Positions 1,155 through 9,600 of a DNA stretch of 13,332 nt are shown here, in pieces. The first letter of the stretch is position 1. Each line of letters starts with the position of its first letter. The DNA comes from Azolla caroliniana (taxonomy: Eukaryota; Plantae; Polypodiophyta), in the NCBI GenBank assembly GCA_043228905.1, contig JBHGNT010000963.1:1-13332 (forward strand), given 5' to 3'. Both the position numbers and the translations under genes were made by a program. Below the pieces are notes generated by a model that worked only from the letters and a program-made list of their open reading frames with translations, did not search any database and was not told where the DNA came from.

Positions 1155-1518
1155 GTTAGACTTTCATTAAGAGGTCTAACTAATCTTTACTGCTAAAAAA
1201 AAGCGAAAGATATTTATTATTTGATTAGCTGGTAAATAGAACTTAATATTAAGAATTAGTGAGAGTAACGACCTGGATATTACCACGCTTTTAAAAAAGA
1301 CAAAAAATTCAACAAAAATTTAGTCAGGTATGATATTAAATTGCTTCGATTGGTACTTCAAGAAAAATAATTTTAATAACTTATGTTTTGTAAAATCATT
1401 TAATTTTCTTTATTGTAATTTCTGATTTTATTAACAAAACACGCAAATAGTTTAAGTAATTATAACTAAAAAATGCTCGTTAAAAATTACATTTTTTGTA
1501 TTCGGTCCCTAAAATAGC

Positions 1519-1567
1519 CATTTTACGGACTCATTTCAGTCCGTAAAATGAGTCTTTTTCGGACTCA
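1519..1567. repeat. Cluster of overlapping inverted repeats at the left end of the YR element
   Basis: CATTTTACGGACT (1519-1531) and AGTCCGTAAAATG (1538-1550) form a perfect 13-bp stem. Also GACTCATTT (1528-1536) with AAATGAGTC (1546-1554), and TGAGTC (1549-1554) with GACTCA (1562-1567). Confidence 0.9.
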
Positions 1568-1639
1568 ATCCCAAAAAGTGGTCATGGAAACTTTTTAGAA
1601 TTATTTACGTAAATAAAACAAAATACATTACAACTAAAC

Positions 1640-1645
1640 TTTATT
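1640..1645 (-). promoter_or_regulatory. Probable polyadenylation signal of the recombinase gene
   Basis: AATAAA on the - strand ~50 nt after the stop at 1693, followed by a T/GT-rich tract. Confidence 0.45.
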
Positions 1646-1692
1646 TACCTAATTTAAGTAAAACCTCAAAAGGAACAATATAAATATACATT

Positions 1693-3152
1693 TTAAGAGA
1701 AATTAGAATTAAACGTACAATTTTGAGCACCTTTAAAACTCTCATCCCCAAATTTAATACCCGAACTCATCGATATTAGTTTTTGTATCGGGAATCGTTA
1801 TAAGAAGAGTTTGTTGGTCTTTTTGGACAATATCTTGAACTTTTAATGAATAGCTGAAGTAGCTCTTCGCTTTTGTATTCGGTCCCTAAAATAGCCATTT
1901 TACGGACTCATTTGAGTCCGTCAAAAAAAAGCACCTTCAAAACTCTCATCCCCAAATTTAATACCCGAACTCATTGAAATCGTGTTACTTTCTTTTGTAG
2001 TAGTAGCTTTGGTGGAATTAAGCGATTCGACTTTCTTCTCCCCCATTATCATTCTGCATATTTTCTTCTTCTTTTCAATTGATTCCTCTATATACGATTC
2101 CGCTACTGCAGACGACCTGAAATAAGTACTTATTTAGAAAAAATAAAACAATAAAATTATAAAAAACTCCTCCTAGCCGTTTCAACGAGGTTAAATCGAT
2201 ATCAGCATCTGCAGCAAGAGAAGCAGAACTTCGCCGAAAGCAATGCCCTGTATATTCTTTTGGATTCGGTAGCTTTAGAAATTCCGCTACCATTGAGGGC
2301 ATTTTAGCAAAAGTATGAATTCCTACACGTTGCACAGTACATTTTTGGTTTCGGTAAGAAATAAAAAAATAATCGTGGTTAATATTTGCTGGTCGAAGTC
2401 GAACATATTTCTGGTAAACTTCCATAGGATTAACAGCTTCACCTTCAGCTACCATGGGAAATACTCTCTTGATATTGGTTTTTGTATCGGGAATCGTTAT
2501 AAGAAGAGTTTGTGGGTCTTTTTGGACAATATCTTAAACTTTTCAGGAATGTAGTTCTTCGCGCCTACATGCACCACACACTCCAATGATAAGACCAACC
2601 TACGAAGTTAAATATGAAACTGATACATGTCATCAAATCAAAAATTAAAATATGATTTTAAACTTACTTTGATTAACAAATATTTTGCATCATCTGCATT
2701 TACCAAAAAGGTATTAATTTCTTGGCGCGTTAAAACTTTTGACTTAGTGGGTTCGTATCCTACTGAATTTCGCTTCAAAAAAGATATGACTCTTGTGAAT
2801 TTGTTTACTTCTATATTTTCTTTAACAAACAAAACAGCTTTTATCATTGAATATTTTGACCAGAGAATAGATTGTTTTACTTCTTGAGACTGTAGTAGAA
2901 AAATACGAAAAAGTCATAATAATAATGATTTACTAAAGTTAAATATTAAAATTGAACATAAAAAATAGCAGCACTTACCTTTTCATGTAAATAGTTTAAA
3001 ATTACATCTTCGTCTATAATTACAATCTTGTTGGATTTTTTCCATTAAATGAATACTTCATATTCCGTTTCGTAAATTTGACGATATTTTGCTGGAAGCA
3101 AATCTAACACAATTTCTTTTGCTTTTTCACTAATTATTTGTGTATTTTGCAT
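1693..3152 (-). pseudogene. Intron-containing tyrosine recombinase (phage integrase fold), Crypton-type, ~350 aa reconstructed, inactivated
   Basis: Exon 1 is 3152-2979 (MQNTQ...LLPAKYRQIYETEYEVFI*WKK...YLHEK). Exon 2 is 2889-2668 (SQEVKQSILWSKYSMIK...YLLIK). Exon 3 is 2599-~2168 (VGLIIGVCGACRREEL...PDTKT...YTGHCFRRSSAS...LKRLGG). Exon 4 is 2116-1930 plus 1725-1693 (SSAVAESYIEES...QNCTFNSNFS*). Introns 2978-2890 (GTAAGT..CAG) and 2667-2600 (GTAAGT..TAG) are phase 0. Catalytic R (2566-2564), K (TKT), HxxR (from 2245) and Y (2094-2092) are present. In-frame stops lie at 3047-3045, 2545-2543 and 2536-2534. Confidence 0.9.
1726..1974. repeat. Patchwork duplication inside the YR element
   Basis: A 45-bp direct repeat (1726-1770 and 1930-1974, 1 mismatch) brackets a copy of exon 3 (1772-1870, matching 2471-2562) and a copy of the left terminus (1871-1921, matching 1494-1544 with 1 mismatch). 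Confidence 0.9.
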
Positions 3153-3442
3153 TTTATAACTTACACAAAAAAAACGCGTCAAATTCTTTTCGTTAAAAAT
3201 AAACAACTAATTAATAAACAATCTGGTAACTATAGTAAATAAAATCATCGCTCACTATTTTTAGATAAATATAATTACTCTAGCCAATAGGAATATTGCA
3301 CGTTTCAAATGCTAAAATTTTTTTTTAAAGATAACAGTTCTGGTACATTAGACATATTTAATTATTATTGTTAAGAAATATATATCATATTAAATATATA
3401 GATCATATTTAATATTTAGGGAACTTTAACAAAACTATTTTG

Positions 3443-3574
3443 TTTGTATCTCGTACCTAAATCAGTTTTTTGGGACTCATTAGCTAATCCAGACTCGGCT
3501 TCGTCTCGTCTGGAAACAGCTACGATTCGTTCCAAAAAACATGATTTTAGGTACTTGATACAAAAATAACTATT
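3443..3574. repeat. Long imperfect hairpin at the right end of the YR element
   Basis: The left arm TTTGTATCTCGTACCTAAATCAGTTTTTTGGGACTCATTAGCTAATCCAGAC pairs with the right arm, whose reverse complement is TTTGTATCAAGTACCTAAAATCATGTTTTTTGGAACGAATCGTAGCTGTTTCCAGAC. The GC-rich apex is ACTCGGCTTCGTCTCGT (3493-3509). Confidence 0.9.
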
Positions 3575-3669
3575 TTAGTCTTAAGTTAAAAAATATTAAA
3601 ATTATTAGACATCCCCCACCACAACACTTACATAATAATTAATAAATTAAACTATACAATACACACAAT

Positions 3670-4239: not shown

Positions 4240-4439
4240 TATCTCACTTATAACAACCAAGTATTTTTTTACTGTAAAATTGTTTATGTAAAAAATGTCG
4301 TTAAATTAACGCAATACTAACTTTTGCTCCCTTTTGTTTGGGCAATTGTTGGCAAACCCTATCAATTTTTGGTTCCACTTATGACTTCTAGTAGTCTTTA
4401 CTTTCTTGTCGTGAAATTGTTTAATTTTTTTTCTAAAAT
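4240..4439. repeat. Diverged ~131-bp tandem repeat, left part (interrupted by the LINE)
   Basis: CACTTAT at 4245 and 4376. AATTAACGCAA, GCAATTGTTGGCAA (4342) and TTGTCG..AA.TTGTTT all recur after the LINE. Confidence 0.7.
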
Positions 4440-6529
4440 ATAGTGAATATAGATAGTGCAGTTAGTAAGTTTTATAACATTTTAAATAAAATACTCGGAA
4501 AAAATGTACCTAAACGCATTAAATCATCGTCTAAATATCCAATATGGTTTTCAAATAAAATTATAAAAGACCTTGAATCAAAAAGCAAATTTCACACCTT
4601 GTATAAGAAATTCGGTTATACCTGTCATGAAAACCAATACAAAGAATTGCGCAAAAGACTGAAAAATGATATAAAACTAGCTTATCAGAATTACATACAG
4701 TACGTTGAGGATGACATATTAATGAACCTACTGCCTTTTGGAACTTTATAAAAAATAAAAAGTCAACAAACAAAATGCCTAGTACCTTCGTTTACAATGG
4801 ACATAAAATTCAAAATGGTCCAGAGATTGCTGATACATTTTCGGAGTTTTTTAAAAGTACTTTTAATAATTCAAAAACCAATCCTCCCTTTACTGGTTAA
4901 TTAAAATTAAATTGCGACCTAATGTCCCTTAATGAGATATCTACAGATGAGATAATTCAAGCCATCAATAAATTAAAGTCAAAGAAATCACTTGGTCCTG
5001 ATAATGTTCCTTCCTACATACTTAAAGGATGTAAGGAAATCTTAGCGTCTCCACTTTGCTATTTGTTTAACTTATCATTAAAAAATAAAACTTTTCCATC
5101 TGCATTCAAAACAACGACTATTTGTACAATATTTAAATCCTGAAATAAAAATCACATTCCTAATTATAGACCCATCGCGTTAATTTGTAACATTCCAAAA
5201 CTATATGAAAGCATACTTTACAAGTATATTTTTTTTACGTACAATCTCAAATTTCACAAAATCAACACGGCTTTTTTAAAAGCAGATCTTCAGCCACAAA
5301 CCTTCTAAATTTCGTTAACAAAACGCATCAAGCATTTGAATCTTTTAATCAAATGGTTGTAATTTACTTAGATGCAGCCAAGGCCTTTGATAAAGTATCT
5401 CACAATATACTTCTAAACAAACTTCATCGCTTCTTTAATTTTTCTGAAGACCTTACGGGTCTTATATCATCCTACCTTAAACATCGTCTAGCTTAAGTCA
5501 AAATTGAATATTTTTTTCTGAAACATACATTGCAACATCTAGACTACCCCAAGGTTCCAATTTGGGACCTCTACTTTTCTTACTGTACGTAAATGATGTT
5601 GAGCATTCTATGCAAGATTTAAAATTCTTGATGTATGCTGACGACATTAAATTGTTTAAAGTTATTGAGAGACCAAATGATGTATTTGAGTTGCAAAATA
5701 TTATAAACAATCTTGTTTCGTGGTCAAAACATTCTGGCTTTTAAAAAATGTAAATGTTTTACTTTTTCCAGAAAAAGAAATACTTTATATCACGATTATA
5801 ACATTAACAATGAATCTTTGGAAAGAGTAACTCATTACAAAGACTTAGGAGTTATTTTTGATTCAAAACTGTCTTTCGATGAACACATTGAAACTACACT
5901 TAATAGGTCTTTCAAAAGCCTGGGTTTTGTTCGTAAAAACAGTAAACATTTCAAAAAACTTTCCACATATTATTTAATACGTTCATTAGATCAAAATTAT
6001 AATATTGTGCTATAGTATGGTCTTCTTACTACAAAAAAATATTAACCGTATCGAAAGAATTCAGAAAAAATATTATCATCACTGCAATTACTACTTAAGA
6101 TACCCACCTCTCACCAGTTATTCTGAATTATTAAACATCTTTCAGCTAGAAACATTAGAAGACCGCAGAAAACACCTTCAATTTTCATTTTTGTACAAAG
6201 TGCTAAACGGCCTAGTAGCTGATAGTACTATACTCGAATCAATACAATAATACGCACCTAGATTTAATTCCCGAACTTCATGCCCTTTCAGTCTTAAATA
6301 ACAACGAACCAATTACATGATTTCTTCGCCGTTGTACTCGATGTAAAATCTATATACTGAATGTACTAAAAATTCGTCCATTGATACATTTGGAGACAGC
6401 CTTGGATGTTTCAAAAACAAATTATTTAATTTAAAACCCCTAACACAATTAATCTGGATCTATCTGTCTATCTATGCCTAAGCCAAAAGATACTCTCTCT
6501 CTCTCCCTCTCTGTATCTCACTCACTCAC

Positions 6530-6789: not shown

Positions 6790-6969
6790 TAAAATTAACT
6801 CCATATTTAATATTACTTTATTTGCCAAAGCAATTGTTGGCAATCCTAATCCATTTTTTGCCTCACTTATAACCACCAGTAATCTGCCTTTTTTTGTCGC
6901 AAAGTTGTTTGTATAAGGAATGTCCTAAAATTAACGCAAATATTGCTACCTTTTGTTACAGCAATTCTT
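6790..6969. repeat. Diverged ~131-136-bp tandem repeat, right part
   Basis: GCAATT at 6830 and 6961, AATTAAC at 6793 and 6929, and CACTTAT at 6864. Colinear with 4304-4425. Confidence 0.7.
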
Positions 6970-7337
6970 AGAAAAACTATTAAAAAAAATTAAACAGCTG
7001 TTGTTTAGGACTTAAAGGGATTATTTATCCTCCACACCGCATACTGTTCAATGCTTGCAATCTTTGTGGCGGCAATCCAAGACCATAATATTTTTTAAAA
7101 ACAAATCCATTTCTCAATCTTTTTTTTGTTTTTCCGCTTTTATAGAGTTTCAAACATATGTTGAAAACCATTGGTGTATAAAGTAAGTACGGGTGTTAAA
7201 GCTAGCTTAATTTTAAATTCAAGATCGACATCCAAATGGAAAAATAATCATAAACACTGCTATGTGTTTGCAACAAAATTAAGTTATTCAATGTGTATAT
7301 GGTTTATTTAAAATTCAAGACAAAAACCATTGCGCCC

Positions 7338-9110: not shown

Positions 9111-9560
9111 TATCTTTCTCTTTCTCTTTCTCTTTCTCTTTCCTTTCTCTTTCTCTTTCTCTTTCTCTTTCTCTTTCTCTTTCTCTTTCTCTTTCTCTTT
9201 CTCTTTCTCTTTCTCTTTCTCTTTCTCTTCTCTTTCTCTTTCTCTTCTCTTCTCTTTCTCTTTCTCTTTCTCTTTCTCTTTCTCTTTCTCTTTTCTCTTT
9301 CTCTTTCTCTTTCTCTTTCTCTTCTCTTTCTCTTTCTCTTTCTCTTTCTCTTTCTCTTTCTCTTTCTCTTTCTCTTTCTCTTTCTCTTTCTCTTCTCTTT
9401 CCCCTTTTTCTTTTCTTTTTTTTCTTTCTCTTTTCTCTTTCTTCTTTCCGGTCTCTCTTTCTCTTTATCTTTAAATTTATCTTTATCTTTATATTTATCT
9501 TTATATTTATCTTTATCTTTATCTTTTCCTTTCTCTTTCTCTTTCTCTTTCTTTTTTTTA

Positions 9561-9600
<40 letters not shown>
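9111..9600. repeat. Compound pyrimidine/purine microsatellite (TTTCTC)n-(TTTATC)n-(TC)n
   Basis: Directly visible: a hexamer TTTCTC array, a TTTATC block at ~9464-9525, and a TC run at ~9565-9597. Confidence 0.98.

Follow-up and report, generated by a model that had tools for sequence, protein, structure and literature searches.

The window, the whole stretch of 13,332 nt analysed here, carries on its minus strand (3152-1693) a tyrosine recombinase (YR) gene in four exons, delimited by exon translation and by tblastn with the best homologs. The gene lies within a longer element, and the parts of both are as follows.

1492-3573, minus strand: whole element, 2,082 bp, or 1,878 bp minus the private insert
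2979-3152, minus strand: YR exon 1, 58 codons, placed by tblastn, with a stop at 3047-3045
2890-2978, minus strand: intron 1, 89 bp, GT-AG, phase 0, placed by tblastn homology
2668-2889, minus strand: YR exon 2, 74 codons, placed by tblastn
2600-2667, minus strand: intron 2, 68 bp, GT-AG, phase 0, placed by tblastn homology
2168-2599, minus strand: YR exon 3, 144 codons, with catalytic R, K and HxxR and stops at 2545-2543 and 2536-2534
2117-2167, minus strand: remnant of intron 3, phase 2, with 9 nt missing at its 5′ junction
1939-2116, minus strand: first part of YR exon 4, carrying the catalytic Tyr
1735-1938, minus strand: 204-bp insert, private to the window copy, which splits exon 4
1693-1734, minus strand: tail of YR exon 4 with the stop codon, matching the C-terminus of protein P0004

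Other repeats surround the element. A broken LINE retrotransposon with RVT_1 matches, followed by a CT microsatellite, occupies 4437-6350 on the plus strand and is separate from the YR element. The segment 4234-4422 resembles 6830-6975 (~71-74%), another repeat lies at 1000-1150 (depth 39-85 in DNA run X11), and a long TCTTTC/TC microsatellite array at 9113-9597 gives rise to spurious long ORFs.

Structure and decay of the recombinase gene

Residues 2-307 of the weevil protein P0005 align to the window as four collinear blocks (combined E 4.7e-114) that break at these exon junctions, and the lengths and phases that an earlier sequence-only reading gave for introns 1 and 2 were reproduced. The exon-intron model is based on homology, not RNA. 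Two RNA read sets placed 0 reads on the element, one of them (X13) also 0 on the neighbouring LINE, and X10, RNA by guess, gave two short contigs, none spanning an intron. Introns had also been taken as a mark of Crypton YRs, a view that did not hold, as 12 of the 44 related loci classed as eukaryote-like carry the gene in one piece. Fifteen of the 44 break near residue 134, the position of intron 2, as judged from the break position and not from individual splice sites.

Read through its stops, the gene gives a product of 350 positions including 5 X, in agreement with the ~350 aa expected, and its closest proteins are beetle YRs (66% identity to P0005, 211/321; 63% to P0004, 154/245). The R, K, HxxR and Y residues of the integrase fold are all present as R144, K172, H251, R254 and Y286, and are conserved in 110, 111, 115, 116 and 106 of 116 homologs, respectively. 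Exon 3 alone matches PF00589 weakly (E 0.00049, below the cut-off), and the domain is recognised in each of the 50 full-length homologs of alignment A1. For P0005 the modelled fold (AlphaFold, pLDDT 90.9) best matches Cre (E 1.5e-11, TM 0.67-0.71), with the integron integrase 41st among the fold matches, and the family profile matches XerA (E 2.8e-5). The assignment to the YR fold was thereby borne out. Cre has a Trp at the H/W position, as do 106 of the 116 homologs, but identity to Cre is only 16%.

Named matches among 119 homologs are all from insects, mostly beetles but also mosquitoes and gnats, and include Tribolium castaneum and Culex quinquefasciatus, two species on the list of Crypton hosts. 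In a quick tree of 40 rows, with no reference Crypton among them, the window groups with P0004 and P0005 (support 99). A profile search returned 2,214 clusters (50% identity) at E<=1e-30, and in a protein family of this size one more family is not rare. Seven relatives (P0029, P0061, P0077, P0219, P0241, P0254 and P0276) carry ZAD, THAP or BTB domains in their annotation, fusions that are possibly domestications or gene-model artefacts. Two of these, the mosquito proteins P0029 and P0061, form a group (support 99) and stop short of the catalytic Tyr.

The window copy is dead, as had been proposed, with three in-frame stops, a lost third donor and the 204-bp insert. Relative to family reads, its third junction lacks 9 nt that hold a Trp codon and a GC-type donor and that occur in reads and contigs of X11, X1, X2 and X8, which agrees with the damaged third intron of the earlier reading. 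The third intron of the family appears to use a GC-type donor (window 2167-2168) in both reads and contigs. The insert consists of three pieces of the element itself, from the exon 4 tail, the end segment 1494-1548 and exon 3 (2471-2550), at 94-96% self-identity, and this composition would fit template switching during repair. A second nested element at 1735-1938 was considered and ruled out, since family reads join 1734 directly to 1939. The damage is private to the window copy because most reads carry sense codons at the three stops, the 9 nt and the 1734-1939 join, though read contigs are collapsed and the sense codons hold across reads, not for one single copy.

Extent and copy number of the element

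Loose read ends stack at 1492 (372 reads) and 3575 (206 reads), beyond which the flanks are unrelated (agreement 0.47 and 0.43), and identical ends are found in contigs of X1, X2 and X9. The right end is placed to within 1-2 A/T bases. Eight read runs were mapped, and 10 runs of 5 coded organisms contain part of the stretch. In DNA run X11 (11,063 mapped reads), depth with both mates summed is 230-244 over 1999-2442, 509-727 and 1,301-1,448 at the two element ends, and 0.4-2.9 and 0-0.2 in the right and left flanks, placing the element ~100-fold above the flank. This suggests about a hundred gene-bearing and several hundred end-bearing copies, figures that are rough because the flanks need not be single-copy in the organism of X11. 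A gene-less derivative in X11 joins 1591 to 3285 (214 reads).

A relative ~95% alike in X8 has a summed end depth of 15,000-59,000 versus ~99 in the gene, so that gene-less ends exceed the gene body more than a hundredfold. In runs X1, X2, X8, X9 and X11, which fall under four coded organism labels, the family occurs at ~95-98% identity, a spread that may reflect close relatives or horizontal transfer, which look alike under coded names.

Many insertion sites, unrelated flanks and gene-less derivatives indicate a multi-copy transposon, as anticipated, and not a single-copy host gene. As had also been claimed, neither a reverse transcriptase (RT) nor a second gene lies between the mapped ends, 1492 and 3573; the RT at 5209-5744 belongs to the separate LINE. 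The locus is almost certainly a dead copy of a YR-only, many-copy DNA transposon. Taken alone, the window copy is a dead transposon of ordinary kind from a large and probably known group.

Ends of the element and of its relatives

The two ends differ, and the element has the layout core-a-stem-a′-spacer-b′-gene-b.

3567-3573, minus strand: terminal core ATAGTTA, 7 nt, fixed; the hairpins of 11 related loci begin with an identical or nearly identical core
3441-3566, minus strand: terminal hairpin, 126 nt, of arms a and a′; in the arm alignment it has tandem G·A mismatches, and the core-side arm is the bulged one
3415-3440, minus strand: 4-nt spacer and internal site b′, a mirror image of the far end
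1492-1513, minus strand: far-end site b, an inverted match to arm a and to b′
1521-1548, no strand assigned: small sub-terminal palindrome with 13-bp arms (fold of 1485-1600, z -4.62)

The predicted fold of 3405-3580 reaches -32.9 kcal/mol (z -7.95), and 0/200 shuffles were as good. Site b matches arm a in inverted orientation at 18/22 positions (0/200 shuffles). The match of b′ to 1492-1513, by hand count, is 15/22 with the window letters and 18/22 once three positions are set to the letter found in most reads; for the window letters unchanged, the shuffle test was not significant (13/18, 17/100 shuffles). One mismatch in the window copy of the sub-terminal palindrome is missing from most reads. 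Among the best-supported rows, loose ends in X11 extend beyond the core. An Rfam search gave no match. The host flank at 3574-3600 is a weak mirror of b′ (73% in the self-match 3408-3600), which would suggest a target similar to a binding arm but may be A/T-rich chance. Positions 3567-3572 of the core hold the reverse complement of the 6-bp terminal repeat of CryptonF-1_CI and CryptonF-1_MC (PMC3212892 supplement 1), which may reflect shared origin or chance.

Besides the window, 11 of the 44 related loci have the core with an inward-facing hairpin; this set excludes L045-L080, of which L045 and L051 entered the flank comparison and L052-L080 are weak partial matches. In the motif screen, 15/121 motif sites passed versus 22/588 random sites, and 12 of the 15 face inward. 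The hairpin is 5′ of the gene in 8 and 3′ of it in 3 of the 11 loci, and gene orientations relative to the hairpin divide 9 and 3, as inversion between b and b′ would give. When upstream and downstream flanks were compared unguided, an inverted match exceeded all 20 shuffles in 12 of 39 loci and a direct match in 2 of 39, the matching flank site being located right behind the hairpin. In L004, L018, L019 and L022 the far end is matched by a site that follows the hairpin after 4 nt (15-17/18, 0/100 shuffles), and more weakly so in L023 (14/18, 2/100 shuffles). Six of the 11 relatives failed this test, perhaps owing to contigs that are short or interrupted. The match of arm a to the far end was significant for the window only, none of the 11 relatives falling below 12/200 shuffles; the partner that mattered for the far end turned out to be b′.

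Inner stems beyond the first 25 nt are better than all 50 shuffles in 13/13 cases and exceed what short binding sites need. Tandem GA/AG occurs 10 times on the core-first strand and TC/CT 0 times, spread over 7 of 11 relatives; the core-side arm carries the extra bases in 11/11 (~53 versus 3 by eye), and the top strand folds lower in 10/11, although these counts are not independent because the 11 families are related and were chosen for having a hairpin. A bias of G·T over A·C was not significant (15 versus 7, p 0.13), and in modelled junctions random flank pieces gave equal pair counts in 3/5. Tandem G·A mismatches are stable in DNA hairpins. Stem folding, the strand bias of G·A and the one-sided bulges suggest selection on the folded strand, as far as sequence comparison can indicate it. 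The same design of hairpin and core was found with YRs just 40-50% identical, across many families.

A young relative was found in six gut-metagenome contigs (L045-L050), which carry a 1,541-bp element, 98-99.7% alike, in different flanks (e.g. L045:503-2043) and with the same end layout as the window element. Its gene (L047:3300-4454) is an unbroken, intronless YR of 384 aa, 27% identical to P0005 and belonging to a cluster of 196 sequences. The host, a gut eukaryote, may be Blastocystis-like, and flanking genes look intron-split. These contigs extend the YR group beyond insects. The core is at the hairpin end in 5/5 intact copies, and tandem GA is absent from this hairpin. The far end in L046 runs straight into the core and folds with the hairpin and b′ into one predicted stem of ~190 nt (-61.3 kcal/mol, z -15) with a small mismatch at the core. 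This junction, at the contig start, may derive from a circle or from copies in tandem. The start of L047 falls no more than 1 nt from b′, as a cut at that internal site would leave it.

Classification and a possible mode of movement

The element encodes a YR with R-H-R-Y, has neither RT nor DDE transposase, its only gene being the YR, and is dispersed in many copies in reads and contigs, as described for Cryptons. It very probably represents a CryptonI family, an assignment set by description, not against Repbase sequences. CryptonI comprises insect elements, 1.5-2.0 kb long, that encode a YR alone and have deletion derivatives (PMC3212892, Kojima and Jurka 2011), the listed families measuring 1,528-1,980 bp. 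The window element is likewise YR-only, of 1.9 kb and with gene-less deletion derivatives; no C-terminal domain is predicted, P0005 having no further Pfam domain, and an insect host is inferred from the homologs. It differs in its offset imperfect inverted repeat, fixed core, long hairpin and internal mirror site, whereas animal Cryptons are reported without terminal repeats (PMC3212892). The offset repeat lowers the case for CryptonI without removing it, because that survey covered other families and may have missed offset repeats. The supplements of PMC6681497 name CryptonI entries, and a motif search in the files covered gave no match.

Other groups fit less well. Eulor repeats are palindromic. 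CryptonA and the Eulor5/6 repeats belong to the same superfamily and have reported conserved termini (PMC5753468), but DUF3504, which marks CryptonA, is matched by 0/50 homologs of the window YR. Neither GCR1_C nor a conserved C-terminal domain, as in CryptonF and CryptonS, was found in 50 homologs, and in place of the 5-6-bp direct end repeats of those groups the two end spacers match at 3/6. No RT or RNase H of DIRS, Ngaro or VIPER type lies between the element ends.

The movement of Cryptons lacks experimental demonstration, and the current model assumes a double-stranded circle (PMC13565253, 2026 review). When the ends of the window element are joined, two inverted sites, b-core-a and a′-spacer-b′, come to lie ~130 nt apart with unequal centres and, by sequence and predicted folding, would fold into one, as in single-strand hairpin systems. 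We consider it somewhat likely (probability about 0.55), from these sequences and by analogy, that the Cre-like recombinase acts on a folded single strand of the element. That insect-type Cryptons and the gut-eukaryote relative share this route, with one strand exchange, has about an even chance. The excised circles of the sequence-only reading agree with the published proposal, but the ends point to a single-strand variant of them.

With the ends joined, one strand would read b-core-a...a′-spacer-b′ and fold, so that a mismatched core is flanked by b paired with b′ and a paired with a′. The folded strand would be the recombination site, as are attP1 and attP2 of the CTX phage. At the b|core border the recombinase would exchange a single strand pair with a target rich in A/T, and the junction would be resolved by host replication or repair. 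The core would then stay at the hairpin end and the far end would abut host DNA with no target duplication; the observed ends, one with a fixed core and the other against bare host DNA, are those expected from a single exchange at this border. Release would probably be the reverse, with the donor strand coming from DNA that is transiently single-stranded and the donor copy staying where it is. Derivatives that lack the gene retain both ends and would move in trans.

The closest parallel is attP(+) of the CTX phage, used by XerC/XerD. There attP1 and attP2, in opposite orientation and ~90 bp apart, pair in the single strand as a 150-bp hairpin; after the exchange of one strand pair, replication completes the process (PMC3089051). 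Both systems have two inverted sites ~90-130 nt apart, a hairpin of 150-190 nt and unequal central regions. CTX, in which the single-strand mechanism is demonstrated and not, as here, inferred, borrows host enzymes, targets dif and obtains single strands by rolling-circle replication, whereas the window element has its own YR, many insertion sites and no replication gene. Integron attC sites are hairpins conserved in shape, not sequence, with extrahelical bases on one arm (PMC2727003), as in the window element, which differs in having no cassette array or attI and a YR no closer to IntI than Cre. The odds are level that these elements are a first eukaryotic counterpart of CTX-phage and integron chemistry, with sites set by shape, in the form of the long stem, the one-sided bulges and the tandem G·A pairs, and not by sequence.

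Among the points against action on a single strand, the element encodes no source of single-stranded circles, and Cre, the best match of the modelled fold, acts on double-stranded loxP. The published working model (PMC3212892, PMC13565253) has a double-stranded circle, with two strand exchanges between b-core-a and the target, and the hairpin and b′ would then be extra protein-binding or regulatory sites. This is a possible but less probable reading. The joined ends alone do give two inverted A/T-rich arms flanking a 6-7-nt spacer, and the fold match to Cre and the likeness of the core to a CryptonF terminal repeat are further points for it. Tn916-type integrases use a double-stranded circle with two strand exchanges. 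Starships, which likewise depend on a YR, integrate when supplied as a synthetic circle (10.64898/2026.09.21.753150). The double-stranded model leaves unexplained, however, stems of 90-140 nt kept without sequence conservation, tandem G·A on one strand, one-sided bulges and the fixed 4-nt position of b′.

Helentron and DINE-1-like elements have sub-terminal inverted repeats and a stem-loop, so the ends could belong to a rolling-circle element served in trans by an HUH enzyme and merely carrying the YR gene. This is improbable, as YRs of many families, only 40-50% identical, share this end design, the catalytic residues of the YR are kept and no HUH gene lies between the element ends. A host-gene pseudogene, or a stray viral (nudivirus/polydnavirus-type) or bacterial integrase, to which the annotated host-domain fusions might point, is in the main refuted by hundreds of reads with unrelated flanks at sharp ends, by finding no relatives in the viral contigs or prokaryote genomes searched, and by best viral fold matches only 12-20% identical, and is very improbable.

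The literature reached holds no description of hairpin ends or single-strand recombination for Cryptons, though Repbase Reports, Goodwin 2003, bioRxiv supplements or figures may hold one. The end architecture described here, absent from that literature, makes the open question of Crypton movement testable: the mapped ends are exact candidate substrates, with a prediction that separates the single-strand and double-stranded models, and the unbroken intronless 384-aa recombinase, with its six copies 98-99.7% alike, is the best candidate for assay. If the single-strand model is true, a shape-recognising recombinase of ~350 aa would already be working in eukaryotic nuclei, and the core, hairpin and mirror site would be a signature by which abundant unclassified insect repeats could be classified.
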